From the NCBI GenBank assembly GCA_965223905.1, contig CBDCXV010000011.1:1696001-1760000 (forward strand): a stretch of DNA of 64,000 nt, given 5' to 3'. Every line of letters starts with the position of its first letter. Positions within the stretch are counted from its first letter, which is position 1. The translations under genes were made by a program, and so were the position numbers. Source of the DNA: Candidatus Latescibacterota bacterium. GTDB taxonomy: Bacteria; Latescibacterota; UBA2968; UBA8231. The notes under the pieces were generated by a model that was not told where the DNA came from, searched no databases, and saw nothing but the letters and a program-made list of their open reading frames with translations. Positions 3,642 through 49,790 of this stretch are shown here, in pieces.

Positions 3642-4571
3642 ATGGGAGCACACTGGCTGCTCGCAGCAACAGCAGGGTTTTGTCTGGTTGGTATCAGCGT
3701 GGCGCTGGGACACACTGGCGACCGGGTGTATCCATTTTACGAAATCACCGAGGAGCTGCAGGAGACGATCGATCTGACTGACGGCTCAATCGAGGATTGG
3801 TTAGGGGTGGGGCCGCCCAGTCTGACGCTGCTGGATTTCTTTGTTGCAGATGATCCCAATTTCTCAAACACATCACAGCGCCATCCCGGCGATCTGGATA
3901 TCCAGATCTGGTTGGGCTGGATGAAGTCTCCCCCCAGGATCTACGTGGCCGCTGTCCGAGCCGACGACGCGTACGTAAACGAGTATCCGGATGCCTGGGA
4001 GCATATGGAGTTCTACGACTCGATCGCTCTGGGGATCGATGGCGACCACAGTGGTGGGGAGCTATACGGCACAGTGGGTTACGAATCAGAGGAGGGATTT
4101 TTGAGTCACAACAAGCAAGCGCAACTTTACCACGCCCTGCCGGAGGTGCCATACGGACGCAATGTCCAAATGATGTGGTCGTTTCTGTGGGAATGGGAGC
4201 GATGGCTGGAAGAGCCGCCGTTCAGCCTTGGCGGCGGGGCTGTCGCAGGAGAAAATCCGACCGTGTCGATAACCGAATTCTACGTGACGCCGTTTGATCT
4301 CTTCGTGTATAACAGCCCGGAGGAGAGCGTGAAATCGGAGTTGTACGCGGGCAAGACGATCGGCTTCAGATTCGTCGTGCACGATGTGGATTGGAAATCG
4401 CGCATGGTCTCGTATCAAGCGGTCTACGATCTGCAAGCCGAACTGGTAGGGACATTGTTTAATGATGGCATACTGCTTGGGGCGGACGATCTGAGCGGTC
4501 AAGACGCCGGTGACGGGTCTGTGGTGCAGGCGGATTCGTGGGCGCGGATCAAGGCGTCGTTGGCGGAGTGA
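3642..4571 (+). CDS. Secreted acidic CBM9/DOMON-like protein with C-terminal SVVQADSWARIKAS motif
   Basis: RBS aggagg, signal peptide, IDLTDGSIEDW, DSIALGIDGDHSGG, C-terminal tail motif. Confidence 0.8.
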   Translation: MGAHWLLAATAGFCLVGISVALGHTGDRVYPFYEITEELQETIDLTDGSIEDWLGVGPPSLTLLDFFVADDPNFSNTSQRHPGDLDIQIWLGWMKSPPRIYVAAVRADDAYVNEYPDAWEHMEFYDSIALGIDGDHSGGELYGTVGYESEEGFLSHNKQAQLYHALPEVPYGRNVQMMWSFLWEWERWLEEPPFSLGGGAVAGENPTVSITEFYVTPFDLFVYNSPEESVKSELYAGKTIGFRFVVHDVDWKSRMVSYQAVYDLQAELVGTLFNDGILLGADDLSGQDAGDGSVVQADSWARIKASLAE

Positions 4572-8021: not shown

Positions 8022-10091
8022 ATGAACCGCCTCAGTCACCGCTGTCACATTGCGATGATCCCGTCGGCTTTGGTCTGCCTTCTTTTGTGGACCGCCCCTG
8101 CGGCGGCCGTCGACACCTTGCGCGTCGGCGTCGGCGGCGATGAGTGGGAAGATACCGGCAAGCTCGAGGGGGTCTCCACGGAGAACGGCGTCCTGCAATT
8201 GTCGCGAGTGGACCCTGCCAGGGATGCGCTGGCGGACCTCAGAAAGCGGGGTGGAGACATCTTCTCTCCACAGGATAAGCACGCCGGTCTCACAGGCCTG
8301 CTGGCCGATGATAGCCGCACAACCTTCTGGCAGCCCCCGCCGAGACGGACGGACTTTACCGGGTTCTCGCTGCGCATCGACCTGGGAGCGATTCTGCCGA
8401 TCGAGCGCATCCGCGTCTTCGGCCAGGAGGACAACTTCATCAGGGCGTGGGAACTGTTTCTCCACGACGGCGATCCAGAGCGGCTCCGCGACGACCTCCC
8501 GATAACCTTCGGGGATCCGGTGCTCTCGAAAACCGATCAGGATTCATCGGTCATCGATGTGACCTTCCCCCTGCAGTTCGTGAGGTTCATCAAGCTGGAA
8601 AACCGCGCCGAGAATATCTTCGCCGTCACCGAGATCGAAGTCTTCGGAGACGGCTTTGCGCCCACCGGTCAGTTCACCTCAGAGATCATCGATCTGAACG
8701 AACCGGCGAACTTCGGTGACCTGCTGGCGTCGGTGGTGCGGGATTCCCAGGCCGACGTCGTCCTGCAGACCCGCACCGGTTCGGTGCCCGATCCCCGCCT
8801 CTTCTACCGGAAGGTCGAGGATGTAGAGGCGGGGGGAATAACCGAGGAACCGATCGAACCGGTGGGGTACCCACAAGCCGCCCTGGAATTCGATGGACTC
8901 CACGCCAATGACCGGGGCGCACTCCAGGACAACCGGCGGGACTGGAGTCGTTGGACCGCCCCCTCCGGCGACCTGGTCGATGAATTCCGGGCTCCGGGCA
9001 ACAGGCAGTACGTTCAGTATCGGCTGCTGTTTACGTCGGGTCACGTTCGGCAGACAGCGCAGGTGGAGTCCTTCGGGATTGAATACTCCACTCCGTCGCT
9101 GGCCGGGGGAGGAGTGCTGGGAGAGATTGTCCCCGCCACCGTCGTTCTCGGGCAGGAGCACTCCTTCGACTACTACATCCGCTCGCAGTTCGCCATACCG
9201 ACGACCCTGCTCGAAGCCGAGGTCGGCACCCAAGGCGACGCGGCGAGGTTGCTGTGGAGGCGATTCTCCGGCAGGCGCTTCGACGGATATCGAGTCGAGA
9301 GGCGGGGTGCGGGTGACGAATTCGAGGCTATTTCGAGGCTCGAGGCGGTGAGCGATACATCCTTCGTCGACTCCGATCTGGAGACGGGGGTGTCGTACGA
9401 ATACCGGGTTCTGGTGGAACCGGCCGGCCGTCGCGGTCTGGACGCCGTGCGCATCCAGACCCCCTTCCCGGCATCCCTCGAATCCGTCGAGCTGAACGGA
9501 GAGACTCTGAGTGCAGATCGAATCGAGGAGATCGGACTCGACGATTCCACCAGCTTGACCCTGCAGCTTCTGGAAGACCGGATCGAGAACTCAGACCAGG
9601 TTTTGACAGTCCGCTTCCGCAGCCTCGTCACCATCTTCGGGACGTCATTCTCCGGCAGGGTCTTCGACCTGGCGGAGAGCGAACTGGGCCAGGACGTCAT
9701 CCCCGGCGACGTCACCGCGCTCTCCGAGGCCAACACACTTTCCATCCGCGGAAAGTTGGAGAAGACCTTGCTTCAGGATCTTCGGGTCGAGCCGGCCGTA
9801 TTTACCCCGAACGGAGATGGAATCAACGACGAGCTGGCAGTCACCTACGTCCTCATGAAAGCGTTGGACGCCGTACCCGTCGAATTGACTCTGTTCGATT
9901 TGAGCGGCCGGCGGGTACGCCGCTTGCGGGCAGGTCAGCGCCACGGGCCCGCGTCGACGGCGCTGAGTTCCTGGGACGGCCGCGATGACCGGCAGCGGCT
10001 CGTGCCTCCCGGACTCTACCTGCTGCAACTCTCGGTTGTGACGGATACGGTTTCGGAAAAACAGACGCAACTCGTGCACCTGGCCTATTGA
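8022..10091 (+). CDS. Secreted protein: discoidin-like domain, FN3-like insertion, C-terminal FlgD-Ig/CHU_C-like domain
   Basis: Signal peptide, IDLGAILPIERIR, FTSEIIDL, WSRW, FTPNGDGIND, WDGRDD..LVPPGLY. Confidence 0.85.
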   Translation: MNRLSHRCHIAMIPSALVCLLLWTAPAAAVDTLRVGVGGDEWEDTGKLEGVSTENGVLQLSRVDPARDALADLRKRGGDIFSPQDKHAGLTGLLADDSRTTFWQPPPRRTDFTGFSLRIDLGAILPIERIRVFGQEDNFIRAWELFLHDGDPERLRDDLPITFGDPVLSKTDQDSSVIDVTFPLQFVRFIKLENRAENIFAVTEIEVFGDGFAPTGQFTSEIIDLNEPANFGDLLASVVRDSQADVVLQTRTGSVPDPRLFYRKVEDVEAGGITEEPIEPVGYPQAALEFDGLHANDRGALQDNRRDWSRWTAPSGDLVDEFRAPGNRQYVQYRLLFTSGHVRQTAQVESFGIEYSTPSLAGGGVLGEIVPATVVLGQEHSFDYYIRSQFAIPTTLLEAEVGTQGDAARLLWRRFSGRRFDGYRVERRGAGDEFEAISRLEAVSDTSFVDSDLETGVSYEYRVLVEPAGRRGLDAVRIQTPFPASLESVELNGETLSADRIEEIGLDDSTSLTLQLLEDRIENSDQVLTVRFRSLVTIFGTSFSGRVFDLAESELGQDVIPGDVTALSEANTLSIRGKLEKTLLQDLRVEPAVFTPNGDGINDELAVTYVLMKALDAVPVELTLFDLSGRRVRRLRAGQRHGPASTALSSWDGRDDRQRLVPPGLYLLQLSVVTDTVSEKQTQLVHLAY

Positions 10092-11884
10092 TGATGAGAA
10101 TCCCGCTTCTGATTCTGCTGGTTGCCTCGGCGACCTTCCCGGTCGCTGTTCCGGCAAGAGTCGAAACCCTCAAATTCGGCGGGCCCGGGCGCAATTGGTC
10201 CGATCACGATCTCGTCATCCGCGGCTTGTTGACATCGGGCAATCGCCTGTCTCCCGTGGAGGTGGACAGCACCGATAACCTCTTGCCCGGCACCGGCGGA
10301 ACCGCCGTGACCTCGGTGACCGCGGCGGTGGACTCGAGATCCATCATGGCCGATCTCACCGACGGCGACTACGCAACCGGATGGCGGGTGTACGTCCACC
10401 CCAGGGGCGCAGAGCTCGAAATCGACCTGAGGGGAGTCTACTATCTGCAGCGCCTACGCCTGCTGCGCGGCACCGACCCGAACGAAAGCGAGACCTACAG
10501 GGATCTGGGCACCTTGTCCCTGCGGGGCTACGAACTGTACGTCAGCGACGGCGGGAGTTTTCGAGGTCCGGACCCTGTGTACTCCCTGCTCGCCGCCGAC
10601 CCCAATCACTCGGAAATAGAGCTGGATCTGCGGTTTCCCCTGCGGCGAATCCGGTTCCTCAAGTTCCGCAGCGTCGGGGATCACACCTTCGTCATGGGCG
10701 ACATGGAGATCTACGGCGTCGGCGTGACGCGTTCCGGCCGCTATGTGAGCGAAGTCATCGATCTGGGAGAAGCGGCCAATTTCGGACCGATCCAGGTCCA
10801 TTCCCGCATCGATCCCGCCGCCGGCCTGCGGCTGCGCACCAAGTCCGGAACCGCACTCGACGACTCCCTCTTCTTCCTGCCCACCGGTATTGCCGGGCAG
10901 GTGAAGGAAATCACCAGGGAGGAGGTACCGAAGAGTCAGCTGCGCTCGTTCCGCAGCTTCAGTGTAGTAAACACCCGGGATTGGAGCCGGTGGAGTCCCC
11001 CGTACACGGAGCTGCAGGGGCCGTTCGACTCGCCGGAGGCGAGGCGCTATGTGCAGTTCGATCTCAACTTCAGGTCGAGCGGGGTTCGCGACCGGGCCAT
11101 CGTCGACTCATTGGTTTTTCAGTACTCGATCCCGGTGCTCGCAGATTCCATTGTCGGCGAAATCTCGCCTGCGGAGGCCGTCCTCGGCGACACCACCGCT
11201 TTTACCTACCACCTGCGGCCGGTGCTTTCCTCTCGTCAACCTGGCTTCGATACCGTCTTCATCACAACCCCTTTCGAGGCCATCGCGACGGCGGTGCGCA
11301 TAGACGATGCCCAGGTCGAATTCGATTCTGCCTGGATTGCCACCTCGAACCAGCTCGCCGTCGTGTTAAAGGACGACCGGGTGGATGCCTCGGGCCAGGG
11401 GGTGGAAGTGGACTTCCTGTCACTGCTCACCGTGGCTGGCACCGAGTTTCGAGGCGAGGTGGGCGACAGCCGATCCGATTCGTTTCCGCAGCGCGTTATC
11501 GCCGGCGACGCCAGTGAAGCCGTGGACGGCGATGCCCTCGCAGTGAGGGCGGACGCCGAGGAGCCCCTCATCGCTCGTGTTCATCTTTCCTCTCCGGTTC
11601 TGACTCCGAACGGGGATGGGACGAACGATACAGTTAGCCTGCAGTACATTCTGCTGAAGGCGACGAGGAGCGTCAGGGCGAGAGCCACGGCGCACGATCT
11701 GGCGGGACAGCGAATCCGCCAGATATACGATGACCGGGATCTGTCCGGACCCAATACGTTGACATGGGACGGAAAGGACGACGCAGGGCGGCTCGCAGTT
11801 CCGGGTTTGTACCTGCTCCGGGTTGAAATCGAGACCGACGAAGGCGACATGAGATTCGTCCGCCTGGTCGCCGTGGCCTATTGA
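10091..11884 (+). CDS. Secreted protein, paralog of 8022-10091, with C-terminal FlgD-Ig/CHU_C-like domain
   Basis: Translationally coupled (TGATG), signal peptide, YVSEVIDLG, WSRWSPPY, LTPNGDGTND, WDGKDDAG..AVPGLY. Confidence 0.85.
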   Translation: MMRIPLLILLVASATFPVAVPARVETLKFGGPGRNWSDHDLVIRGLLTSGNRLSPVEVDSTDNLLPGTGGTAVTSVTAAVDSRSIMADLTDGDYATGWRVYVHPRGAELEIDLRGVYYLQRLRLLRGTDPNESETYRDLGTLSLRGYELYVSDGGSFRGPDPVYSLLAADPNHSEIELDLRFPLRRIRFLKFRSVGDHTFVMGDMEIYGVGVTRSGRYVSEVIDLGEAANFGPIQVHSRIDPAAGLRLRTKSGTALDDSLFFLPTGIAGQVKEITREEVPKSQLRSFRSFSVVNTRDWSRWSPPYTELQGPFDSPEARRYVQFDLNFRSSGVRDRAIVDSLVFQYSIPVLADSIVGEISPAEAVLGDTTAFTYHLRPVLSSRQPGFDTVFITTPFEAIATAVRIDDAQVEFDSAWIATSNQLAVVLKDDRVDASGQGVEVDFLSLLTVAGTEFRGEVGDSRSDSFPQRVIAGDASEAVDGDALAVRADAEEPLIARVHLSSPVLTPNGDGTNDTVSLQYILLKATRSVRARATAHDLAGQRIRQIYDDRDLSGPNTLTWDGKDDAGRLAVPGLYLLRVEIETDEGDMRFVRLVAVAY

Positions 11885-11899
11885 GAAAGAGAAAAGTCA

Positions 11900-14514
11900 T
11901 GCGCCACCTGACGATATGCGGATCCGTTTTGATCTTGATCACCTGCACGACCTCCGACCTGCTGGCGGCGACGCCGGGAAGGGAAAGGGGAGCCACTTCG
12001 CAGGTGCGGATCGAGGGATTCGACCCGCTCATTCCCACGCTGCGAAAATGGTACGTGCCCCAGGATCTCTTCTACTATTACCAGTGGGGCGGCTACAAAT
12101 ACACGAACTACGCCCGCAACACCTTCGAGCGTTACGTCAGTACCGAGCTTGAGGGCAGGGGAAAGTACGACATCTTCGGAAACTGGCTCACCCGCGGTTG
12201 GCAGATCTACGAATGGCGCCAGCAGCAGCCGCGCTCCTTTGGCAGCACGGTGCTCAAGGAAGCCCGGTACAACAACTGGTTCAGCAAGGTCATAGTGGCC
12301 TCGGATTCGAAGGGCCAGTACCATTCGGCCCTCACCATCGGAGACGAGATCCGCACCACCCTCACGCCACTGACCTTCAGTCGTGCCCGGTTCAACGGTG
12401 TCCAGTGGGATATCGCTTCCGACAAGTACAATTCGACGCTCTTGCTCTCGCGCGTCAGCCGGCCGATTCTCGCCGCGAGTGAAACCAGGCTCGACCCGCG
12501 CCAGGATTACACCAACCTGATCGGACTGCGGAGCACGGCCCAACTCGGGGACTTCGTCGAGCTCGGCGTCGCCTTCGTCAACACCCACTTCGGCTCCAGC
12601 CGCAGCGAATTCGCCGAGACATCGCTGGCCGGATTGCTGCCCGCCAAGCTGAACTCCGGCAACGTGACCGAAGTCATCATCCGTATTACCGACGATTCGC
12701 CCGGAGACGGTTCCGGTGCGCTGTATTTCTTCTCCGAGATGATCGTCGATGGGGAACCATCTGCAGTGGAACCGTTCGTCTCGGGGGGCCGCCTCAGGCG
12801 GGGCTTCCTGGAAGCCGTTGCGGAAGCCCCGATCGAGCTGAGGTTCCCGGTACCCGAGCCCCTGGGCGTCGAGAAAGTCCGCTTCGACCTCGTGCTGTCC
12901 AACGACTACCGGGTCGACGTCACCTCCAATCTGCAGGTAAACGCGGCGCTCCAGCCCATTTTTCTGCCGGTTACCCGTGCCAACGGCAACGTGCAGGACA
13001 ACACCAACCAGCGTCTGGTGAGCTTCCACTACGCTATACCGTCGGCCAACCAGATCGGCAGCCTGACCCTCGAGGTCGATGACGTGCTCGGGTTCCAGGT
13101 GCGCGGCGAATTCGCCAGAAACACCCAGTACTATCGATATCCGAACATCAATTTTGCCAAGTTGAGCGATCTGCATAAGAGCGACCGTACCGCGGACGCC
13201 TTCTTCCTCAACGTCACCAAGCGCAGCGGTCGATTTTTCGGGTACGGGGAAGCGTTTGGCATGGACCACGACTATTCGACCCGCGGGTATATCACGAACG
13301 CCTTGAATAACTTCGTCGACTACGAGGACTCCCGCAGGAATTGGTACGAGTACGTCGATGACAACGACGACCAGGATCGCGAAGTGGACTGGGCTCGAGC
13401 CGGTGGCGGCACAGCCGACATCAGCATCTTCCCAGGTCTCGACGAAAACAACGACCTGATTTCCGACTTCAACGAGAATCAGAATCTCACACCGGATTAC
13501 GACGAGCCGTTTCTGCGACACTATGTGGATCCACCAGAGTTCCTCTTCGGCGTGGACATGAACAACAACACGGTGGTAGATCGGTTTGAAAACGACGAGG
13601 AGCCGGACTACCCCTACAAGAAGGGCCACCAGGGCTACAACCTGTACGGAGGGGGGGAGATCTACCCCGGCCTCAACGTTACGATCGGCCGCTCTCGCGA
13701 ATGGCTCCCCGCAGGCAACGAGCGCAGCGAGATGTGGTACTCCCTCCTCACCCTGTCCCGGGATCACCCGCGCCTGGGTCGGGTCGAGCTGTTTCACATG
13801 CTCAAGTTTGTGACCGATGACATCGCGGATCCCGTGGTGCTGTGGATCCAGAGGCCCGGCTCGTCCGGAGGTCTCAGGCCCAAAAGCGATCCTTTGATCG
13901 CCGGGGACACCGTCGTAAATGAAGGCTTTGCAGGCCACACCTACGTGGCGGGCAACCTGACGGTGAGGAACAAGCTGCGCATCGATCACTTCCGTCAGCG
14001 GGGCGACGCCGCGGAGAAACTCGGCAACAGCCTTTTTCTCGGTCTGATCAACAAGGCGGATCGACCTTTCGAAGTCGGCGACGGCATCATCGTGACCCCG
14101 AGATGGAAGAGCATGTGGCGGCGGCGGACCCAGGGCCGGGAGTCGGATCTCGACAACAACTTCAGCCAGATCTTGTCGCTGAGCGGCATGTTCCCCTTGC
14201 TCAGCCACAGCAGCATCGAAGTGGGCGTGGAAGGTGTCCTCTTCTGGAACTCCGAACCGATCCCCGACCCCCTGCCGCCGGAGTATACCGACGACTTTGT
14301 CGGCAAGGTCTTCACCGCTCAGCATTCCAACCGCGTCGAGTACCTGGGATACGATATCATCGCCAACGTCGGGTTCCAGGTGAACGACATCAATTTCGAT
14401 ACTCTCACGGAACTCGATGTGAGCAATACCATCGCCTTCGTACAGGTCTTTGCGGGGCTCGAACAGGAGCGGCAGGGCGGCAGGCCAACCCAGCGCCGGG
14501 GGTATCTCTACTGA
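11900..14514 (+). CDS. Conserved large exported protein, putative outer-membrane beta-barrel with Asp-rich Ca-binding-like region
   Basis: Signal peptide, RKWYVP..YTNYAR, YVDDNDDQD, DENND.ISDFN, DMNNN..DRFEND, alternating beta-strand C-terminus VQVFAGLE. Paralog of 39914-42634. Confidence 0.75.
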
Positions 14515-15938
14515 ACGACTCCCGTCCCCAAAGAGGAATTACCCGCGAGCGGCTCCTCGGGCCGCTCGTAGCAGCCGCTGCGGCGCTGCTGTCAGCGGGG
14601 TGTGGCGGGAACACGGCTGATCAGCCACAGCGACCGCTCCCGCTCGCCCGCGTCGACACGGTCGAGATCACCGATGCGGACTTCGAGACGGCCCTGAAGA
14701 AGATGGAAGGGATGGACTCCTCGGCCTGGACCCTCCAGAAATGGCGAGCCCGGTTTCAGCTTCTCGTCGACAGGCAGCTATTGCTCCTGGAGGCCCGCAG
14801 GCGGAACCTGTACGACGACCCGGAGGTAGTGAGGGAGGTCGAGGCGTGGGAAACCTCCCGCCTGACCGACCTCCTCATCGAACTGGAGATGGGCGCCTCG
14901 CTTCAGTGGGGGGAAGAGGAGCTCGGGGAATTCTTTTCGCAATCCGGTGCGGGCCGCGAATTGCGCATTGGCCGCCTGATCTTCACAGACCGCACGGAGG
15001 CCGCCCTGGCCCTCGACCGGGCGCGCAACGGGATGAGCTACGCACAGCTCCACAGTCTCCATTCCACCCCCTCCGGGCACCCCGGTGCAGGGGGCGGCGA
15101 CCTGCGCTGGCTCAATCCGCTCACTGTGAGGGAACCGCGTCTTCTCTCCCTTTTTCAGCATGAGGTCGGAGCGGCCGAACTCATCGAGATCGAGGGGCGC
15201 TACCACCTGGTTGTCGCCCTCGAAGAGCGCACCGTGCCGCTGCAGGAGCGCCGCGGCCTCGCCGAACTTGCTATCGAACGGCAGAGACTCTTCGAAGCAA
15301 ACCTCGCGTACCTCGAATCGCTCATGAGAAAATACGAGGTGGTGCTCGACAGCTCGACTTTCGATCTGTTGCTGGCGGCGGGCGCACCCTCAGACGTGGA
15401 TCCCGGTTTGCCGCTGGTCCGCAGCACCCTCAGCGAGTGGACGGTCGGCGACTACCTCCGGCACCCGGCTGAGGAATTGGGGGTTTCCGACGCTGCGACC
15501 ACACTCGATTTGCGCATCCGACGCACCTACTTCCTGGATCGCCTCCTCGACAGGGAGGCCCGGGAAAAGGGCCTGCACACCCTCCTGGCGGAGCAGCGGC
15601 GAGCCGTGAGGGAACAGAAGGCGATCGACGCCATGTGGACCCGTGATGGTCTCAGCCAGGTTCCGGTGACGAGAGCGGAAATACAGGATCACTTCGAGCG
15701 CAACCGGGATCGTTACGCCGGGGAGCTGTTCGACCCCAGGGGACCGGCGCGGGTGCGGTCGAGGGTGATTCGCGACCTCAAGGAACAGCGAGCCGCCCCT
15801 CTGTTCGAGACCTACCTCGAGGACTTGCGAGCCAGGCACGAGCAGCTCGTGACAGTGGACGAGGACCGTTTTCACGCTTTCGTAGCGCGCAAGAGAAGAG
15901 AGAGCGACCCCGTCGGGCACGGCGGCGTCGATCGCTGA
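14511..15938 (+). CDS. Degenerate parvulin/SurA-like lipoprotein chaperone
   Basis: Lipobox LSAGC, LLVDRQLLLLEARRR, GGDLRWL, homologous to 5107-6798. Start uncertain (in-frame CTG overlapping the upstream stop). Confidence 0.7.
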   Translation: MNDSRPQRGITRERLLGPLVAAAAALLSAGCGGNTADQPQRPLPLARVDTVEITDADFETALKKMEGMDSSAWTLQKWRARFQLLVDRQLLLLEARRRNLYDDPEVVREVEAWETSRLTDLLIELEMGASLQWGEEELGEFFSQSGAGRELRIGRLIFTDRTEAALALDRARNGMSYAQLHSLHSTPSGHPGAGGGDLRWLNPLTVREPRLLSLFQHEVGAAELIEIEGRYHLVVALEERTVPLQERRGLAELAIERQRLFEANLAYLESLMRKYEVVLDSSTFDLLLAAGAPSDVDPGLPLVRSTLSEWTVGDYLRHPAEELGVSDAATTLDLRIRRTYFLDRLLDREAREKGLHTLLAEQRRAVREQKAIDAMWTRDGLSQVPVTRAEIQDHFERNRDRYAGELFDPRGPARVRSRVIRDLKEQRAAPLFETYLEDLRARHEQLVTVDEDRFHAFVARKRRESDPVGHGGVDR

Positions 15939-15962: not shown

Positions 15963-16739
15963 ATGGCTACGCGGATACATCAAAACCTGTTTCTCACGGC
16001 TCAGGCTGCCCTTCTGCTTGTATTTGGTTGCGGCTACCACTTGGTGCCAGGCCACTTCAAGCCTTTCGACGCCGAGATGCAGCCGGAGCCCGGAGCCGCG
16101 GCTGTGATCGAAGTCCACGACGACGGCACCGCCGCCTACATCCGCAACCGGCTCGAGATATCAGTCCGGCCAATGACCGACGAAGAGCTCAATCGCCAGT
16201 TCGGATCGTTCTCCAAAGATGGCGGCGGACCGGGGGGCGAGCTGCCGACGAACCCCATGACCCTGGGCGACTGGGAGGACCCGCGCTCCGGTCATCCTCC
16301 GCAGCGCTTCTCCATCTTCAAGGTCAGCGTCAAGAACTACGAATATCCCAAGGTGAAGCTCGATCCCCTGCTGGCGACCGTCGTATCCGACAACGGCCGC
16401 ACCTATCATCCGTGGGGAGATTTCGACATGGTGGAGTATTTCCGTCGCTTCGCAATCGGGTATACTGGCCTGGCCTATCAGCGCTTCATCGAACGCCAGG
16501 ATATGATAACCCGTACATCCTACCCCGCCGACGAATTCGTTTTTTCAGGCCAGACCGTCGAGGGCTTTCTCCTTTTCCCTCGCATACATGACGACGTCAG
16601 GGCAATAACCTTCCGTCTCCCCGGCGTGGGCACGAGGTACGACTTCCGCGACGAGCCCCTCGAATCCCTCGATCTCCGTTTTCGTTTCGAGCGCGACGTG
16701 CGCAAGGTGAAATCCCGCGAGCTGGTTTCACGGAAATAG
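15963..16739 (+). CDS. Hypothetical lipoprotein (DUF4352-like beta-sandwich?)
   Basis: RBS aggag, lipobox VFGC, FKVSVKN, GQTVEGFLLFP. Confidence 0.7.
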   Translation: MATRIHQNLFLTAQAALLLVFGCGYHLVPGHFKPFDAEMQPEPGAAAVIEVHDDGTAAYIRNRLEISVRPMTDEELNRQFGSFSKDGGGPGGELPTNPMTLGDWEDPRSGHPPQRFSIFKVSVKNYEYPKVKLDPLLATVVSDNGRTYHPWGDFDMVEYFRRFAIGYTGLAYQRFIERQDMITRTSYPADEFVFSGQTVEGFLLFPRIHDDVRAITFRLPGVGTRYDFRDEPLESLDLRFRFERDVRKVKSRELVSRK

Positions 16740-20506: not shown

Positions 20507-20508
20507 CC

Positions 20509-34673: not shown

Positions 34674-36854
34674 TCAACGGGCTCCTATGGCTCCCTCGAA
34701 CATCTGCTCCGTCCGCTCGCGCAACTTTCCGAAAATCTCCTCGCGACGCAGCACCATCCGGTGCTTCCGCCGTGCCTCCTCGGCTTTTTCCGTTTGCCCC
34801 ATCTTGCCGTAGAGACGGCCCAGGTGATTGTACACCTGGATCTCTTCCCCCTGTTGAATGAGACGCTCGTACTCCCGCACCGCCTCGCGGTTGCGTTCCA
34901 GCCCTTCGTAGGCGAGGGCCAGATTCCGGCGAGCAAGCACGTGATCCGGGTTCCTGTCCAGAACATGGGAAAACTCCGCAGCAGCCGCCGGGAATTCCCG
35001 CCGTCTCAGGTAGCTGTATCCCAGATTGTTGCGCACGTCGTCATGCCCGGGCTGCTGCTCCAGGAGCAGCAGGTACAGGTGCTCCGCTTCCCGCCACCGT
35101 TTCTCCTGCTGGTAGAGGACTGCCAGATGGTACCCGGCATCAAAATGATCGGGGTCCAGTTCCAGGGCCTTCAGGAAGGAATCCCTGGCTGCCTCCAGGC
35201 GTCCCGCCAGACGCAGGGCCCCTGCCAGGCCAAAGTGGGAACGCGCAGCTGTCGGTTCCAGTTCGACAATCTCCTCCAAGAGGACCACGGCCTCTTCGAT
35301 TCTCTCCTCTTCGAGATAGAGATTGGCCAGATTGCGCCGGGGATCCGCCCGTAGCGGAAACCGTTGGGCCAACAGCCGGAATTGTTCTCGAGCCTCGGCG
35401 GGGTTATCGAGATCGACCAGGAACTCACCCAACTTCAGGCGTGCATCGTAGTGACTCTCATCCAGATCGAGGGCTCTTCGCAGCTCCAAGGTCGCCCTCG
35501 CCGGCATACCTTTGCGGGCGTAGGCCAGCCCGGCGTAGTAGCGGTCCTGGGCGTCGTTCGCCGGGGTGATGGCTCTTGCGTTCAGCGGCCACGCGACAAG
35601 GAGGAGGAGACCTGCCGCCGGCAACAGGCTTCGCCACTGCCCGGCCGACACCCGGTCCTTCAACCACGCGCCCGCGTAGCAGGCCAGCAGAATCAACAGC
35701 GGCACCGCGGGGAGACGGTAGCGGGCGGTCACCGAGAAGGCGACGACCGCTCCTGCATAACACAGGACAAACAATACGATTAGACCCGCCCGTCTTTCGA
35801 CGATGGCCAGCACCAGGCCGACCAGCGCCAACGGGCCCACGACGCCGAACGGGAAGGCGAGCCAACGATGCCACACCAGCCCGGCCAGCAAGGGGGAATG
35901 GGCGCGGGCAAAATAGATATCGGTATGACCCCGAATCTCGCCTCCCTGCCAGAAGTCGAACGCTTTCCCGGCCAAAGATCGCATATAGGCTGCCGGCTCC
36001 TCTCTGACGAACGAGGTCGCCGCCCGCCAGAAATAGGCCGATTGTTCGGAGGGTTTTTCCAATCCCTGCCGGACCGGCTGCCGGATCAGCTCATCCCGAT
36101 CCGCGCCCGGTCCCAACCTGACCGTTCGCGCGTAATCCGGGTTGTTGCCCAGATAAAAACTCAAGCCCGAGTCCGATGAGAGAAGCACCAGGTCCCCACC
36201 CTTGTGGTAGTTTCGCCACGTCGTGCCGCCGATGACGAGAAGCATCCCCAGCGCCAGCAACAGGACGCGGCCGAGCCGGGCAGGCAGCCCCGGATCTCTG
36301 CGCCACATTATCCATCCGGCCACCCCCAGGCCGAAGAGGAACACGTGGGCAACGGCGAGGCCGGCCAGGCCCAGCAGGAGTCCGGCAGCAAGACAGGACC
36401 AGGGATGTCTGACGGTACCTGGGCGGAGGAGAAAGAGTACGAGGCCCAAATTGAGGAGGATGGCCAGCACCGGGGGAAGGAATTCCCCCTCGAAGTAGAT
36501 CAGCGGTCCGTACACCGCAGCCACGGCCCCGGCGGCAAGACCGATGCCCGGGGAAAATACCCCCCGGCCGACCAGGTAGAGCAGTACGACGCCGAGCGCG
36601 CCCAGGCTGAGCTGGATCAGGCGGCAGGCGAAATAATCAGCCCCGAAGAGCCAGTAGAGAATGCCCAGGAAGGCGGGATAGAGCGGCGGCCATGTGAACG
36701 GCCCGTCTCCCAGGCTGAAGGTCGCGGCGAGCTGTTCCGCTTGCTGGAAGTAGGCCTGTGCGTCCACCATGGGTGCATCGAAGAATGGGCTCCGAGCCGC
36801 CATCTGGTGGAGGTAGAGAGCGCGCCAGAGGAAAGCGAATGAGAACAGGAACAC
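34674..36854 (-). CDS. GT39/PMT_2-like (GT-C) membrane glycosyltransferase with C-terminal TPR array
   Basis: VDAQAY, PPLYPAFL, YGPLIYFEG, WRNY..G....LS..SG.SFYLGNNP, ARYRLP, followed by multiple TPRs. Confidence 0.88.
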   Translation of the reverse strand: MFLFSFAFLWRALYLHQMAARSPFFDAPMVDAQAYFQQAEQLAATFSLGDGPFTWPPLYPAFLGILYWLFGADYFACRLIQLSLGALGVVLLYLVGRGVFSPGIGLAAGAVAAVYGPLIYFEGEFLPPVLAILLNLGLVLFLLRPGTVRHPWSCLAAGLLLGLAGLAVAHVFLFGLGVAGWIMWRRDPGLPARLGRVLLLALGMLLVIGGTTWRNYHKGGDLVLLSSDSGLSFYLGNNPDYARTVRLGPGADRDELIRQPVRQGLEKPSEQSAYFWRAATSFVREEPAAYMRSLAGKAFDFWQGGEIRGHTDIYFARAHSPLLAGLVWHRWLAFPFGVVGPLALVGLVLAIVERRAGLIVLFVLCYAGAVVAFSVTARYRLPAVPLLILLACYAGAWLKDRVSAGQWRSLLPAAGLLLLVAWPLNARAITPANDAQDRYYAGLAYARKGMPARATLELRRALDLDESHYDARLKLGEFLVDLDNPAEAREQFRLLAQRFPLRADPRRNLANLYLEEERIEEAVVLLEEIVELEPTAARSHFGLAGALRLAGRLEAARDSFLKALELDPDHFDAGYHLAVLYQQEKRWREAEHLYLLLLEQQPGHDDVRNNLGYSYLRRREFPAAAAEFSHVLDRNPDHVLARRNLALAYEGLERNREAVREYERLIQQGEEIQVYNHLGRLYGKMGQTEKAEEARRKHRMVLRREEIFGKLRERTEQMFEGAIGAR

Positions 36855-37600: not shown

Positions 37601-39901
37601 TTACCTTGTCGGGCTGCCGGACAGGCTCTCGAAACGCTTTAGCATGGCCGTTGCGTCCTCCGCCTGGCCCTGCGCCGAGCGCAGTTGGGACAGGTTGTAG
37701 TAGGCCTGCGCATAGCCCGAATCGATTGCAACCGCCCGCTTCAAGGCTCTGTCTGCTTCGTCGTGGCGTCCCGCGTTCGTATACAGTCCGCCGAGCTCAT
37801 TCCACGCTTCCTTGTAGGCTGGATTGAGCCTCAAAGCCCGCATGAGCGAACTTTCCGCCTCCCCGGGCCGTCCTTGTTTGTTGTACAGGACTCCGAGTTC
37901 GTAGCGCGCTTCCGCGCCGCTCGAATCGACTTCGATGGCCTGCCACAGGGCTTTCTCCGCCTCCTCGTAACGTCCCTGATTGGAATGGAAAAAGGCCAAC
38001 AGGCGGTGCGTGTAGGCGGATCCTTCCCCCCCCACGCGAACGGCGTTTCCCATTTCGGCGTAAGCAGCCCCAAAGTCTCCCTCGGCCGCGTGCGCGAGCG
38101 CGAGGTCATGGTAGGAAGGGAGAAACGTCGAATCGATGCGAATGGCCGCCCGAAAAGCCTCGATAGCCTCGGCTGTGCGGCCCTTCCGAACGTGGGCGAT
38201 GCCGAGACCGTAGACGCTGTCCCGCGCTGCCAACTGCCTCCAGTCATCCCCGGGAAGCTCCATGGCGCGGAGTTCCGGCTCGAAGATGCGGACCTGATCC
38301 GCGTACTTCTCCCGCACCTCGGCGACCAGGCTGTTGAACAGCTCCTCCTCTCTCATCACCCGAAGGGAGGCCGTCGCCCTTCTTTCAGCCGCGGCGAAAG
38401 GTTGCAATTGGCCCACCCTCCTGTCCTGCACACGGAAGACGGAATAGCCCTGCGGGACTTGCACCGGACCGACGAACTGACCCACATCCGCGGCGAGCGC
38501 CCGGTCCACCAGCTCCCCGTACCGGGCCCGCTGATGCCCGTGCAAGTGCAGATTCCCGTCCTCGGTACCCGATCGCTCGGTCAGATGTGCCAGGTCCTCG
38601 AACGGTTCCCCCGACTCCAACCGTTGACGCACGGCGGTGGCCGCGTCCGGATCATCCACGAGAATCTCCTGGATCCAGATCTGGGAGGACTCGACGAACA
38701 GGCCGGAGTGATCGAGATAGAACTGCCTGGCATCCTCCTCGCTGACCTCCACCTGGTCGCGGACCGTCCGGCGCAGAGCCATCAGCAGGAGCTCGACTTC
38801 CTTGCGTTTTTTCCACCCGAGCACTGAGGGGGTCTGGTGATACCCCAGCTTCCGGGCCGCCTCCCGGATCATGATGTCGGGCAGTACCCAGACCCGGGCG
38901 GCCTCCACCACGGCGACACTGTCCCCAAGCCCGGGCTTGCGTCCGAGATGGCGAAACGCCCAGTCGTAGTCACCGACGGTTATTTCTCCCCCTTCGTAGG
39001 TAAAGAGCGTGGCGGCCGCCTCGGCAGGCGTGAGCTGTGGCCGCGACGTTCCACCAGGCTCCTTGCCCACCAGGATCGCCAGTCCCTCCGGTTTCAGCGA
39101 AAGGCCTGATTCGTAGGCCAATTCCTCGACCAGCGCCCGCCTTTCGACCGCCAGTTTCTCCTTCCCGAGATCGGCGCGCGCCCTGCGGCGGTTCCTGGGT
39201 GAGATCTCTTCCCGCTCCCGGGTAAAGCGGACCAGGAGATAAGCTCCGCGCGATGACAGCAGCTCCGAGACTTCGCCCGATTCCAGCTCGCGGAAAAGCT
39301 CGACGGGAATACCCGCCCGGCCAGCCACGGATCCGTCGACAAAACCGACTTCCCCACCCGTGTCGACAAACCGCTCATCGATCGAGTGGAGCCGCGCCAG
39401 CTCGGCGAAATCGGCCCCCTCTTCCAGGCGCCGGCGAAGACGGGCGGCCTGCTCTTCGGTCTCCACAACTATCCAGCTCAGGAGCCTCTCGCGGTCGAGT
39501 CCGTCCCTGGCGAGACGCGCCCGCACCTCCTGCCCGGTGATGCTGACGAGAGGGTGGAGGTGGCGTCTCTCGTACTGATCGACTACGTGCCTGCGAACCG
39601 CGTACTGGTAGCCGGCCTGAAACGCGCTGGTGGTGTCGATTCCCCGACGGCGGGCTTCGAGTACCAGCAGCTTTTCGTCGATGAGCGTCTGCAGGTAGTC
39701 GCGTCGGGCGGCATCCCCGCCCTTCTCAGGGCGCAGTCCCGGCAACAGCGAAGCGGCGAACTCCTCGACTTCGCGCCTGTCGATGGACTCCTCACCGACC
39801 CGGGCAATGACTGCCGAGGGGGCGTCGGCCTGTTCGCCGGGAGGGGTGTCGGCGCAGGCGACGACGAAGAGGAGACAACCCGGAACTATTCTTCGAATCA
39901 A
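37601..39901 (-). CDS. Parvulin PPIase lipoprotein (two rotamase domains) with C-terminal TPR repeats
   Basis: Lipobox VVAC, LQTLIDEKLLVLEA, GADFAELARLHS, VGPVQVPQGYSVF, TPR tail. Confidence 0.88.
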   Translation of the reverse strand: MIRRIVPGCLLFVVACADTPPGEQADAPSAVIARVGEESIDRREVEEFAASLLPGLRPEKGGDAARRDYLQTLIDEKLLVLEARRRGIDTTSAFQAGYQYAVRRHVVDQYERRHLHPLVSITGQEVRARLARDGLDRERLLSWIVVETEEQAARLRRRLEEGADFAELARLHSIDERFVDTGGEVGFVDGSVAGRAGIPVELFRELESGEVSELLSSRGAYLLVRFTREREEISPRNRRRARADLGKEKLAVERRALVEELAYESGLSLKPEGLAILVGKEPGGTSRPQLTPAEAAATLFTYEGGEITVGDYDWAFRHLGRKPGLGDSVAVVEAARVWVLPDIMIREAARKLGYHQTPSVLGWKKRKEVELLLMALRRTVRDQVEVSEEDARQFYLDHSGLFVESSQIWIQEILVDDPDAATAVRQRLESGEPFEDLAHLTERSGTEDGNLHLHGHQRARYGELVDRALAADVGQFVGPVQVPQGYSVFRVQDRRVGQLQPFAAAERRATASLRVMREEELFNSLVAEVREKYADQVRIFEPELRAMELPGDDWRQLAARDSVYGLGIAHVRKGRTAEAIEAFRAAIRIDSTFLPSYHDLALAHAAEGDFGAAYAEMGNAVRVGGEGSAYTHRLLAFFHSNQGRYEEAEKALWQAIEVDSSGAEARYELGVLYNKQGRPGEAESSLMRALRLNPAYKEAWNELGGLYTNAGRHDEADRALKRAVAIDSGYAQAYYNLSQLRSAQGQAEDATAMLKRFESLSGSPTR

Positions 39902-39913: not shown

Positions 39914-42634
39914 TCACTCCAGCCCGGCGAAAACGCTGATGAAGCTGCTCTGCAGGCTCCTGGCCGGCCCGTTTTCGGGGTCGCGCCGGTCGAACTTGAC
40001 CCCCATCTGAGTGCTGAGCTTGTAGCCCAGATAGTCCCTCGTGTTGGTGAACTGCACGGCCAGGACCCGACTGTTCTGATCGTTGAGATCCTGCCGCAGA
40101 TCCCTCAACTGGATGTACTCCACCCCCGCTTCGACATACGTGCTTGTCAGGATCGGGAAGCGAGCGAGCACGGAGAACAGCTCCGTGAGCTCTTCGCGCT
40201 CGCCGACACCGGCATGACCGCGCGTCTGGTTCCGGTACTCGCTCTTCCATCGCGGCTCCAGTTCCAACAGGCCCAGACTGAACTCGTAGCCGACCTTGTT
40301 GATGACGCCGAAGAAATGCTCGTTCTGCAGCTGGCCGCGAATCCTGCGATCCTCCCTGCCGAGCTGGGTGTGGGTCAGGTCGTACTTGACCTTGTTGATG
40401 AAACGCAGCCTCGACATTCCGGTGTAGTCGAAATTCAACCACAGGCTGTTGTGCCAGGCATCCTCGAGCAGGAGCGGATCGGTGATGTTGACTGGTTGCC
40501 CTTCGGACTCGGCGGTCTGGTATGCCCACTGCAGCAGGTTCTCGCGAATGTCGTCCCGGGCGCGCTTGACCATGTCGTAGACGCGCAGACGACCGAATCC
40601 CGGATAGTCGCGGTCGAAAGTGGCGAGCAGGTAGTTGGTCTCGTTGTGGCGGTCCTCCGAGAGGAGACGTTCGTCCATGCGGCCGGCGATCGCTCGAATC
40701 TCCGGAGTGATGTTGGCGCCGGCATATGCATTGTAGCCGCGGTGATCCCGCCGGTAGGGGTAATCGGGCTCGTTGTCGTTCTCGAACCGGTCTATCCAGC
40801 CGTTGTTGTTCATGTCGGGACCGAAGAGGAATTCCGGCCGGTCGACGTTGAAGCGGAGGAAGGGCTCTTCGTAGTCGGGAAACTCGTTGCGTCGTGCGCT
40901 GCGGCGGTTGTCGTTCTGGTTGAAGTCGGAGATGAAGTCGTTGTTTTCGTCCCATCCGGGGAATATGTCGAAGTCGCCGCTGCCCGCCCCTTTGCGCGCG
41001 AGGTCCGGGATCGCGTCCTGGTCGTCGTTGTCGTCGACGAATTCGTAGAAGGAGCGCGGGTTGCCGTAGTCGACGAACCCCGTCCGTGGGTGGGTGCTCG
41101 TGGTGACCGTGGTGGTGGAGTAATCGTGGTCCATGCTGAACGCTTCACCAAAGAGGAAAAACGGATAAGCCTGCTTGGAAAGGTTCACCATCCAGGCGTC
41201 GGCGCGGCGATCACCCCTGACGCCGGAGAAGGAGTCATGGGTGATCAGGTTGGCGTTGGGGTACATCCTGTAGCTGTAGGACACGTCGTACTCGCCATAG
41301 AGGCTGACGCCCAACACATCCGTCACCTCGATAGTAGCGCCGGCGACCTGGGTGGCCGTGGGCAGGCCGTAGTCGAAGCTGAGCAGGCGCAGATTGGAGT
41401 TGTCCTGGACGTTGCCCTCGGCCCGGGCCACGAGCAGGGGGGTGGTTTGCCCGGCAGTTGCTCTCCCCCCGCCCACATGGGTGGTCTGGCGATTGGAATT
41501 CACCCAGACCTGGTAGTCGTTGCCGACCGGCAGTTGGAAGCGGACCCGTTCGATCTCCGATTTGTCTCCGCGGGCATTGTCCACAAAGCCTGCAGGGCCC
41601 GTGCTGTCGAAATCGTATCTCACGCTGATCTCCTCACTGCCGTCGGCGGCCCTGAAGCCGGTGCGCTCGAACCCGCCCTGGACCACCGGCTCGAACCCGA
41701 TCTGCCTGGCAGCCTCCTGCTCCCCGTCGATGTAGGTGATGATGAGATCGGAGCCTCCCTCGAAAAAGGAGGCCCCTCCCTCGCCGTCTTCCGGCGAGTC
41801 GTCCCTCAGGATGAGCTCGACCCACTCGACCGGGGACCCGTTCTGATCCTGGGTCAATTCCCCCTTTATGAGACCGCCTTCGAAACTCTCCAGGTCGGTG
41901 TGGGACTGATGCGCGTTGACGAAATTGGCGCCGAGCTTGACGAAATCGCCCACCTGGGCGGTCACCCTGCCGCCGAACAGGGAGGTGTTGTTGGTGAGCT
42001 CGATAGCCGTCGGGGTCCTCTCGCCGCCAGGCAGGTTGATGCGGGAATAGATGACGGTGGCCTCGTACTTGTCGGAGGAGAAGTCCCACTGCAGACCGTC
42101 GAAGTCGGGCTTGGAAAAGGTCATCGGCGTGAGAACGGTGCGCAGCGAGCTCCCGATGCTCAACGACGTGTGATACTGGCCCTTGTGGTCGGATGCGATC
42201 ACGAGACTGGAAAACCAACTTTTGAACTTGTCGTCCTTGAAGAGTGAATTGCCCAACTGGGCCCGGGGCTGATTCTGGCGGTGGTCGTAGATCAGCCAGC
42301 CCCTGGAGATGAAGTTGCCGTATAGATCGTAGAAATAGTCACCCTCGTGATTGATGTTGATGTAGCGTTGGAAGGGTTCGCGGGCGTAGTTGGTGTACTC
42401 CCACTGGCGCCAGCGGTATTCCTGGTAGAGCTCGCCCGGCACGTACCATTTGCGCATGGCCGGATCGAGAGTGCCCGTGAGCACACTGGTCCCCTGGGGT
42501 TGGTAGCTCCAGACATCCGCCTTGCGCGTGCCCAGGCGCGAGCCGTAGTCCTGCTGCCCGAGAACGGGAACGGAAGCCGCGATGACGGTCAAGGCGAACA
42601 GAGCAGCACGGTTGGAAAAAGCCGGTCTTTTCAC
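39914..42634 (-). CDS. Conserved large exported protein, putative outer-membrane barrel; paralog of 11900-14514
   Basis: RBS gaggagg, signal peptide, RKWYVP, YTNYAR, FVDDNDDQD, DMNNN..DRFEND, ends FISVFAGLE. Confidence 0.75.
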   Translation of the reverse strand: MKRPAFSNRAALFALTVIAASVPVLGQQDYGSRLGTRKADVWSYQPQGTSVLTGTLDPAMRKWYVPGELYQEYRWRQWEYTNYAREPFQRYININHEGDYFYDLYGNFISRGWLIYDHRQNQPRAQLGNSLFKDDKFKSWFSSLVIASDHKGQYHTSLSIGSSLRTVLTPMTFSKPDFDGLQWDFSSDKYEATVIYSRINLPGGERTPTAIELTNNTSLFGGRVTAQVGDFVKLGANFVNAHQSHTDLESFEGGLIKGELTQDQNGSPVEWVELILRDDSPEDGEGGASFFEGGSDLIITYIDGEQEAARQIGFEPVVQGGFERTGFRAADGSEEISVRYDFDSTGPAGFVDNARGDKSEIERVRFQLPVGNDYQVWVNSNRQTTHVGGGRATAGQTTPLLVARAEGNVQDNSNLRLLSFDYGLPTATQVAGATIEVTDVLGVSLYGEYDVSYSYRMYPNANLITHDSFSGVRGDRRADAWMVNLSKQAYPFFLFGEAFSMDHDYSTTTVTTSTHPRTGFVDYGNPRSFYEFVDDNDDQDAIPDLARKGAGSGDFDIFPGWDENNDFISDFNQNDNRRSARRNEFPDYEEPFLRFNVDRPEFLFGPDMNNNGWIDRFENDNEPDYPYRRDHRGYNAYAGANITPEIRAIAGRMDERLLSEDRHNETNYLLATFDRDYPGFGRLRVYDMVKRARDDIRENLLQWAYQTAESEGQPVNITDPLLLEDAWHNSLWLNFDYTGMSRLRFINKVKYDLTHTQLGREDRRIRGQLQNEHFFGVINKVGYEFSLGLLELEPRWKSEYRNQTRGHAGVGEREELTELFSVLARFPILTSTYVEAGVEYIQLRDLRQDLNDQNSRVLAVQFTNTRDYLGYKLSTQMGVKFDRRDPENGPARSLQSSFISVFAGLE

Positions 42635-42697
42635 GACAAACCCTCCTCTGGATACCCTCAAAACTCTGCTGTGCACGACCGGGGATGGAGGTTTTCG

Positions 42698-44495: not shown

Positions 44496-44501
44496 GAGCT
44501 C

Positions 44502-46496: not shown

Positions 46497-46512
46497 GGTG
46501 GTGGATTCCTTC

Positions 46513-49647: not shown

Positions 49648-49696
49648 GGAGAGAGATCCGTACATATGAGGTCTCCCGACTCTCTGGCAGGGCATG

Positions 49697-49736
49697 AAAA
49701 CAAAAACGAGGGAGGTAATCGAACCCCTCCCTCGTT
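49697..49736 (-). terminator. Intrinsic terminator after the operon B leader gene
   Basis: Minus strand aacgagggagg...cctccctcgtt followed by tttgtttt. Confidence 0.85.
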
Positions 49737-49790
49737 CAGTATCCTCAAAAAAGATTGCGCCTGATCGTATTGATCGGCTCAATCCGAAGA

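Follow-up and report, generated by a model that had tools for sequence, protein, structure and literature searches.

Two genes in a 64,000-nucleotide stretch of the genome of a Candidatus Latescibacterota bacterium (positions 1,696,001 to 1,760,000 of contig CBDCXV010000011.1, assembly GCA_965223905.1; hereafter the window) encode related proteins of about 900 residues that match no described family, which raises the question of what such a protein does beside a set of candidate cell-surface proteins. Latescibacterota are widespread uncultured bacteria. The protein, named here the core, belongs to an undescribed outer-membrane barrel family that is centred on Latescibacterota and carries no family annotation. 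Modelling indicates a Sec-exported outer-membrane barrel of ~23-24 strands that would constitute the membrane core of a many-times-duplicated gene cassette. Because it is encoded beside sugar-binding-like surface proteins, the core probably forms the membrane part of a cell-surface capture device. The two genes, each an open reading frame (ORF), are:

11881..14514, plus strand: core barrel copy 1, an 877-residue ORF from a TTG at 11881, with its likely start at an ATG at 11899
39914..42676, minus strand: core barrel copy 2, a 920-residue ORF in which a GTG at 42634 is a possible start

Translation of copy 1 from the ATG at 11899 gives MRHLTICGSVLILI..., a plausible signal peptide, and this start agrees with the one at 11900 proposed by a previous sequence-only reading of the window. 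The same reading placed a second copy at 39914-42634; a homologous copy is indeed found there, but its ORF reaches 42676, and position 42634 falls on a GTG inside it. Both proteins show a signal peptide. By sequence comparison the two are paralogues with a likeness far above chance (348 of 864 residues identical, 40%, E = 0 by BLASTP), collinear from residue 50, at the aromatic N-terminal motif, to a common VFAGLE. All the motifs quoted earlier (RKWYVP...YTNYAR, [YF]VDDNDDQD, FPGxDENNDxISDFNxN, PDYxEPFL and DMNNN...DRFENDxEPDYPY) are present in both copies; of the shared VFAGLE terminus, only copy 2 ends there, whereas copy 1 extends 17 residues beyond it. The core is also, as had been judged by eye, the best-conserved component of the cassette, with 40% identity between copies versus 28-33% between paralogues of the neighbouring surface proteins of the window (P proteins, described below). 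The G+C content of the window is ~60-65%, and long spurious opposite-strand ORFs therefore overlap the core genes; third-position G+C is high in both core frames (0.80 and 0.83).

Database searches assign the core to no known family. At E <= 1, Pfam lists only a sub-threshold CBM-like_2 match for copy 1 (E 0.18) and no match for copy 2, and NCBIfam matches neither; no TonB-receptor, Omp85 or usher family appears in the Pfam results, in line with the lack of such motifs noticed before. A single core protein matches no sequence of the PDB, and a profile of 63 family members (alignment A1) retrieves two chance-level matches only (E 0.039 and 0.045). The family itself is large: a word-indexed search yields 1131 homologues at E <= 1e-3 among 7998 scored candidates, the sole names among them being 'hypothetical protein' from metagenome-assembled genomes (MAGs) of Latescibacteria/Latescibacterota and Handelsmanbacteria, and an exhaustive search of 50%-identity representatives defines 638 clusters, 421 of them at E <= 1e-10 and 164 at E <= 1e-30. 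All 30 nearest clusters in a language-model comparison are unnamed. The nearest named one, DUF6029 (PF19494; 0.89), was a lead only and is not listed by Pfam at E <= 1.

Copy 1 begins with the signal peptide; a conserved aromatic segment follows at aa 47-87, then a small β-domain at 88-135 and the barrel at ~137-860. An AlphaFold2 model built on the 63-sequence alignment A1 has a mean predicted local distance difference test (pLDDT) value of 81.2 and a predicted template modelling (pTM) score of 0.82, and resolves the following elements:

aa 1-22: signal helix
aa 24-87: low-confidence segment holding the conserved aromatic motif
aa 93-132: small domain of four short strands and one helix
aa 137-860: 23 antiparallel strands, each of 8-18 residues
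aa 240-377 (12598..13011, plus strand): β-sandwich insertion between two barrel strands, delimited by DSSP of the copy 1 model
aa 490-583 (13348..13629, plus strand): acidic block with three putative calcium-binding-like loops, inserted between barrel strands of copy 1

The 23 strands fall into three blocks (137-239, 378-461 and 584-860) that are split by the two insertions, the β-sandwich (~240-377) and the Asp-rich block, the latter modelled as coil with pLDDT values of 80-90 from residue 520. Connections comprise 2-3 residues after strands 1, 3, 5 and so on, and are long after strands 4, 6, 8, 10, 14, 16, 20 and 22. In outer-membrane barrels, periplasmic turns are short and outer loops long. 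This alternation in the model suggests that both insertions lie in outer loops, a topology read from loop lengths only, and one further short N-terminal strand would close a 24-stranded barrel. The general attributes of an outer-membrane barrel, namely signal peptide, long strands and short turns alternating with long loops, are all present in the model. The 'β-barrel-like C-terminus' anticipated from sequence is thus a barrel, but one that in the model spans residues ~137-860 instead of the C-terminal part alone. Odd/even hydropathy alternation in the modelled strands averages 1.39 for the barrel and 2.76 for the soluble insertion; it does not tell the two apart and is uninformative on membrane embedding.

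A Foldseek search of the PDB returns 37 matches at E <= 1e-3, and among those listed almost all are outer-membrane barrels. The strongest are Deinococcus SlpA/SDBC (E 2.7e-8) and MtrB (E 7.7e-8, TM 0.27/0.35), followed by LptD, FimD and TonB-dependent transporters (TBDTs), with TM values <= 0.27 on the query. VIA-align, which is independent of Foldseek, lists 50 entries that are all membrane β-barrels (Z 8.8-13.8); the longest alignments listed are with MtrB (414 residues), BtuB3 (390), TbpA (387) and SlpA (380). By its model, the core clearly has the fold class of an outer-membrane β-barrel, and no single family stands out. The proposal that the core is machinery rather than cargo, and barrel-like, is therefore supported: the model is confident, its listed structural neighbours are all or nearly all membrane β-barrels, and neither a soluble fold nor a confident match to a known family appeared.

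The most conserved region of the family is the acidic block. In alignment A1 the mean frequency of the top residue is 0.63 in this block, compared with 0.39-0.48 in the barrel blocks and 0.38 in the aromatic N-terminal motif; D494, P518, D521, G557 and D559 are invariant among the 63 sequences, and most remaining positions of the block are conserved at >= 90%. Its acidic loops, three in number, follow the pattern DxDxDGxxD or DxNxNGxIDxxE, are kept family-wide and resemble DxDxDG and EF-hand calcium loops; simple-pattern matches to a DxDxDG loop occur in 50 of the 63 members and to an EF-hand-like loop in 44. Neither the thrombospondin type-3 repeat (PF02412) nor the EF-hand is matched by Pfam at E <= 1. 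The likeness to thrombospondin type-3 repeats proposed earlier consequently holds for the kind of motif, in the form of DxDxDG and EF-hand-like loops, and not for family membership, since the Pfam family is unmatched. Judged from these motifs, the block probably consists of calcium-binding loops. BtuB, with which the loops may be compared, has calcium sites in its own loops.

What the barrel serves is suggested by its neighbours. In the window, five genes for P proteins precede the two cores:

8022..10091, plus strand: P protein, 689 residues, with a CHU_C / type-B-like C-terminal tail ending in VHLAY
10088..11884, plus strand: P protein, 598 residues, directly upstream of core 1, all-β and multidomain
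46513..49782, minus strand: P protein, 1089 residues, with weak F5/8 type C and CHU_C matches
44502..46748, minus strand: P protein, 748-residue ORF, CHU_C 40.3 bits, start probably over-extended
42698..44629, minus strand: P protein, 643-residue ORF directly upstream of core 2, CHU_C 35.8 bits, start probably over-extended

Sequence features suggest that P proteins are lectin-like and combine a discoidin domain, Ig-like domains and a type-B-like tail of a type 9 secretion system (T9SS). The tails of three of the five pass the Pfam CHU_C threshold; with the NCBIfam profiles, window P tails stay below the cut-offs both for type B (25.7 and 23.4 bits, cut-off 35) and for type A (21.2 and 19 bits, cut-off 23). 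Orthologues of the 598-residue protein carry F5/8 type C, CHU_C and FlgD_ig domains. Its own model (pLDDT 84.9) best matches galactose oxidase and Ig-like domain chains, with TM values that are low because the protein has many domains.

A profile of the P tail detects 157 ORFs with such a C-terminal tail in the genome of the window (7.9 Mb, 11 contigs), and these divide into two sharply separate classes:

P-family tail class: 53 ORFs, 42 of them with NGDGxND, ending in VAY, VVY or LVY; 46 lie within 10 kb of a core
Other tail class: 104 ORFs without NGDGxND, ending in LLR, LLK or LVR; 4 lie within 10 kb of a core

Against a background of 6.5% of the genome lying within 10 kb of a core, association with the core is specific to one T9SS-type tail class. 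The genome holds 34 full-length core paralogues, of which 19 have a tail-bearing ORF on the same strand ending directly upstream and 9 follow another core in tandem; the remaining 6 show neither arrangement, two of them having a small barrel gene in between and one being itself an over-extended ORF. The terminal aromatic residue of P tails resembles the β-signal of outer-membrane proteins, and most cores end in a non-aromatic residue.

The association extends beyond this genome. Species-representative genomes contain 478 related loci; among the best 80 of these, 76-77 have P-type genes on the flanks of the core, at core identities of 40-46%. The 80 loci are titled Latescibacterota, with some 'Gemmatimonadetes' MAGs and one 'Planctomycetota' MAG. 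The 17 orthologous loci (core identity to copy 1 of 65-68%) show one arrangement throughout: P genes, missing only at contig ends, then the core, the SurA-like gene and the L lipoprotein, a small cassette-specific lipoprotein. Synteny kept despite such divergence argues for co-function of P and core. The other cassette members in the window, including the Q family, are:

3642..4571, plus strand: Q-family protein, 309 residues
4993..6798, plus strand: PPIC-type peptidyl-prolyl isomerase (PPI), SurA-like, 601 residues
6973..7875, plus strand: Q protein, 300 residues, with a signal peptide; CBM9-like by language-model neighbours only (0.97)
14571..15938, plus strand: SurA/EpsD-like lipoprotein directly downstream of core 1, with a putative start and a lipobox LLSAGC near the N terminus
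15963..16739, plus strand: L lipoprotein, 258 residues, cassette-specific
49791..50708, minus strand: Q-family protein, 305 residues, heading cassette 2
37601..39901, minus strand: lipoprotein with two PPIC-type isomerase domains and TPR repeats, directly downstream of core 2
34674..36854, minus strand: GT-C (PMT_2-like) membrane glycosyltransferase that also carries TPR repeats; its gene lies two genes downstream of core 2

Within the window's genome, 8 of 10 L paralogues, 13 of 26 SurA-like isomerases and 25 of 91 Q proteins lie within 10 kb of a core, where the jackhmmer sets for Q and for the GT-C/TPR protein may include drift. The GT-C/TPR gene is a loose member of the cassette (tblastn match in 32 of the 80 related loci); as a speculation, it may glycosylate the Ig-like P proteins. 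A polytopic DUF6785 membrane protein is mildly enriched, with 10 of 60 jackhmmer matches within 10 kb of a core.

Across the phylum, 94 of 151 sampled genomes have a match to the family profile, among them 63 of 63 in the window's own taxonomic family, and 13 of 13 and 5 of 6 in two others. By the same profile it is absent from the 30 and 19 genomes of two families in the same class, in which SprA is found in 29 of 30 and 19 of 19 genomes, and in 143 of 151 across the phylum. The core, missing from these 49 genomes of SprA-bearing families, is therefore a lineage-specific addition and not a basal or general part of the T9SS. Copy numbers elsewhere reach 61 matches in one genome (G060) and up to 93 first-look candidates in another (G123).

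Not all cassettes resemble those of the window. Divergent ones, in same-strand arrays of ~20 kb, occur at five places in the genome (contig numbers are those of this assembly):

C2:278001-298000 (locus L085)
C11:~901000-918000
C10:~2094000-2120000
C1:~1488000-1507000
C3, a small contig

They contain P, a PorV/PorP-like small barrel, 2-3 tandem cores, a YbgF-like TPR protein of ~1080 residues, ExbB, ExbD, in one case an FGE-sulfatase/GldK-like protein, a second ExbD, DUF4159 and an L lipoprotein fused to a TonB_C-like domain. The small barrels (~300 residues, with a canonical ...GYKF signal at the end) stand between P and core in two cassettes of this genome (C2:294808-295746 and C11:911074-911958) and in loci L082 and L084 of other families, and downstream of the core in L081. 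All three similarities to T9SS components fall below the curated NCBIfam cut-offs: the small barrel scores 50.2 bits against PorV_fam (cut-off 90), the TPR protein 118.8 bits against PorW/SprE (cut-off 250) and the FGE-sulfatase protein 79 bits against GldK, its best match (cut-off 350). Of the genome's 13 ExbD matches, 8 fall in divergent cassettes, and of 5 further genomes, drawn from three families, 4 have tandem cores with an ExbD pair 4-6 kb away; one of these showed no other ExbD pair. The C-terminal TonB_C-like domain of the L lipoprotein, present in 3 of 10 paralogues, all in motor-bearing cassettes, scores 26.6, 18.5 and 15.9 bits (cut-off 24.6) and is the only Pfam match in each protein. 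The two cassettes of the window have no ExbBD, small barrel or TonB_C fusion, and ExbBD is found in 1 of 84 fetched related loci. A Pfam PorP_SprF search of the genome gave no match, wrongly so, since phmmer queried with PorP-like ORFs of other genomes recovered three homologues as well as PorV; phylum-wide tallies of such barrels by Pfam are for this reason minimum values. The genome encodes ~53 P-type cargo proteins and 34 cores but only three PorV/PorP-like small barrels besides the PorV next to PorU. Elsewhere on C2 (360753-362641), an L lipoprotein and, directly after it, a PorV/PorP-like barrel stand as orphans: no core is nearby, and an ExbD gene lies 4 kb further on (C2:366710). This may be a shared shuttle unit.

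Because the association follows the tail class, we rank first the reading that the core is an outer-membrane dock, and perhaps also a conduit, for P proteins, to which we give about even chances. P proteins would cross the outer membrane through the ordinary T9SS of the cell, whose SprA (SprA_N, 98 bits), PorU (617 bits) and PorV, adjoining PorU, are present, and the barrel would then receive and hold them at the cell surface. The conserved, probably Ca2+-binding acidic block and the variable β-sandwich loop would form its outer cap; the SurA-like isomerase would help to fold the barrel or the P proteins, and the small L lipoprotein would be a periplasmic accessory. The PorU and PorV genes lie in this order at C2:228589-232724, and a second, partial PorU-like gene is found at C1:111635-116458.

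A complex prediction of core residues 40-865 with the upstream P tail (495-598) scored 0.00 and bears on this reading neither way. Several points weigh against a dock. That P and the barrel touch is something we infer rather than observe directly, and the same holds for passage of anything through the barrel. A 24-stranded barrel with a chaperone, a lipoprotein and, in some cassettes, ExbBD exceeds what known anchors need. The barrel-to-P ratio varies: a core may have 1-3 P genes, while in other places a single P is followed by 2-3 tandem cores, which fits a simple one-to-one anchor poorly. The core is not found in the 49 genomes of two sister families that have SprA, and is therefore not a general part of the T9SS. 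Finally, the usual type-B receptor, in the form of a PorV/PorP-like small barrel, stands between P and core in some cassettes, so that the big barrel must do something else there. Taken with the motor genes, these small barrels indicate that the core is not simply a PorP substitute and that the process may be energised.

A SusC-like role appears, on balance, somewhat unlikely. Here the core would be the gated uptake channel of a glycan-capture cassette, in which P and Q catch polymers and the barrel admits oligomers; it would be closed by its N-terminal small domain, its loop insertions or both, and in some cassettes be driven by ExbB/ExbD through the TonB_C-like domain. Copy numbers (34 here, 61 in G060, up to 93 in G123) are like those of polysaccharide utilization loci (PULs), and the partners look carbohydrate-binding, with F5/8 type C domains on P orthologues and CBM9-like Q proteins. 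ExbB, two ExbD, the YbgF-like TPR protein and DUF4159 in divergent cassettes, the concentration of ExbD matches there and near tandem cores of further genomes, and the fusion of L to a TonB_C-like domain are further points in favour. Cassette 2 is flanked by GHL10, GH42-like and DUF4838/GH67N genes, and BtuB, FyuA and TbpA align with the core over 357-387 residues from model residues 42-50. However, Pfam detects neither a Plug nor a TonB-dependent receptor domain in the core, no TonB box was identified, and the TonB_C-bearing protein is a lipoprotein instead of a membrane-anchored TonB. The window's two cassettes have no motor, as is the case for all but one of the 84 fetched loci. Glycoside hydrolases do not regularly accompany the cores (of 8 GHL10 genes, 1 is near a core), DUF6785 is only mildly enriched, and the genome has its own 26 ordinary TBDT barrel matches (PF00593), located elsewhere.

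A broader proposal, unlikely in our estimation, would make the cassette an autonomous, hitherto unrecognised outer-membrane machine of Latescibacterota: a ~24-stranded barrel with a calcium-stabilised cap, driven by an ExbB-ExbD motor of the Ton/Tol type, that either imports captured material or displays and moves lectins. Its partners would be a PorV-like shuttle, the SurA-like isomerase and an L lipoprotein able to carry a TonB_C-like domain; in the import variant it would be an analogue of SusC without the TBDT fold. Dozens of cassettes without a motor, the two of the window among them, would then be served by one or a few motor-bearing 'master' cassettes in each genome.

We consider a dedicated export or assembly pore quite improbable. 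In this reading the cassette would be an independent counterpart of the T9SS translocon (or of an usher), and the barrel would itself export the cassette's P proteins over the outer membrane or thread their tails. The cassette isomerase, PorV-like barrel, PorW-like TPR protein, PorK-like FGE-sulfatase protein and ExbBD would play the roles of PPI, PorV, SprE, GldK and GldLM, respectively, and these parts parallel an extended SprA translocon that includes a PPI subunit, PorV and SprE (title of PDB 8gl8). The strict association with one tail class is consistent with such a pore, and large barrels usually conduct something. Yet the PorV_fam, PorW/SprE and GldK matches are all sub-threshold, as given above; this genome, like 143 of the 151 sampled from the phylum, has an ordinary complete T9SS, whose cargo includes the P tail type (CHU_C); and the core resembles SprA or ushers only as a generic barrel (TM <= 0.27). 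The plug of ushers sits in a periplasmic turn, whereas the β-sandwich of the core would, by loop lengths, lie in a long loop of extracellular type.

Most improbable of all is an ordinary structural outer-membrane protein or porin merely co-duplicated with surface-protein genes and without functional tie to them: duplication of whole blocks would by itself keep neighbours together, and the structural matches are generic, but the order P, core, isomerase, L is kept in 17 loci at 65-68% core identity, P genes flank cores of 40-46% identity in 76-77 of 80 loci, and the pairing persists across families of the phylum.

The surroundings of the cassettes in the window contain further genes. Those beside cassette 2 have a carbohydrate flavour that is not general to the cassettes:

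51043-52908 (+): polytopic membrane protein, DUF6785 and DUF6784, with 9 hydrophobic segments
52927-54621 (+): GHL10-like
54683-56131 (+): GH42-like
57212-59818 (-) and 30107-32824 (-): two proteins with DUF4838 and GH67N
60079-61422 (-): HEAT and CBM9

FG-GAP / ASPIC-UnbV repeat (CRTAC1-like) proteins are encoded beside both cassettes at 17507-20506 (+), 19516-22092 (+) and 32968-34677 (-); the overlap between the first two means that a start or a frame is wrong in one of them. Between the cassettes, 25783-27282 (+) encodes a 499-residue protein with an HTTM domain (221.8 bits) and a vitamin K-dependent γ-carboxylase lumenal domain (133.5 bits), a bacterial γ-carboxylase homologue that is a curiosity beside the putative calcium-loop theme. 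An IS66-family transposase lies at the edge of the window (28-1515, -).

Contigs from four RNA libraries of one study, labelled sponge metagenome, carry sequence near-identical to parts of both cassette 1 P genes, of the core and of its downstream gene, and three of these contigs span the core stop codon. This gives a hint of cassette 1 expression, and only a hint because DNA carry-over is possible; parts of the locus that the contigs leave uncovered carry no meaning. Four studies other than the likely source also have runs with DNA near-identical to window positions 8000-16800, so that the organism or close strains recur in habitats of the sponge-metagenome kind. A literature search on the Latescibacteria/Latescibacterota outer membrane, T9SS and β-barrels, supplements not covered, yielded nothing on the family, and the accessible part of a 2015 Latescibacteria genome analysis assumes unspecific porin-mediated uptake and leaves the family unmentioned (PMC4454575).

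In one genome the core family can occupy as many as dozens of loci, and its ties are to one class of T9SS-type tails and partly to Ton/Tol-type motors. If the barrel is a receptor, channel or pore for lectin-like proteins, it would represent a new outer-membrane device with a genomic weight like that of SusC/SusD in Bacteroidota, and type-B T9SS cargo could then use partners other than PorP/SprF.

Comparison with known systems shows both likenesses and differences. MtrB, LptD, the FimD/PapC ushers and SlpA are its best structural neighbours (Foldseek E 2.7e-8 to 1e-4), with a similar number of strands and, in VIA-align, Z values of 11.1 for MtrB (414 residues aligned) and 11.8 for SlpA (380 aligned). 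LptD and MtrB work with a lipoprotein or a sheathed partner. In contrast to this overall likeness, TM values on the query do not exceed 0.27, identities are 5-12% and no family matches, so that the similarity concerns fold class only. Unlike ushers (PF00577), the core has no Pfam match and no C-terminal domains after the last strand, and FimD is a generic match (Z 9.9-10.6). Family profiles of Omp85/BamA/TpsB, LptD and SprA are likewise not listed for the core by Pfam at E <= 1, structural matches being again to the fold class only.

With SusC and PULs the core shares a large barrel multiplied dozens of times per genome beside carbohydrate-binding-like surface proteins and, in some cassettes, an ExbB/ExbD/TonB_C-like motor. 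It differs in having no Plug (PF07715), TBDT barrel (PF00593) or SusD, in partners that are anchored by a T9SS tail and not by lipid, and in the absence of hydrolases as regular neighbours.

The third comparison is with PorP/SprF and PorV, barrels of 14 strands to which type-B or type-A tails bind (PMC9143113). In Bacteroidota, a PorP/SprF-like barrel binds the tail and keeps the cargo on the surface (PMC9143113; PMC12618676), type-B cargo of Flavobacterium johnsoniae requires cognate PorP/SprF shuttles (PMC12618676), and SprF is disulfide-linked to GldK (PMC12635249). PorP/SprF and PorV are 14-stranded barrels of the FadL type with ~300-400 residues, whereas the core has ~23-24 strands, 880-1000 residues and two large loop insertions; Pfam matches the core to neither PF11751 nor PorV, and in some cassettes a true PorV/PorP-like small barrel adjoins it. 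The likeness with PorP/SprF (PF11751) lies in the arrangement, a barrel gene beside type-B-tail cargo with many pairs per genome. As regards PorP/SprF function, the core shows the expected adjacency, since 19 of 34 cores are directly preceded by a tail-bearing ORF and the 10-kb surroundings of cores contain 46 of 53 P tails; it may also bind them.

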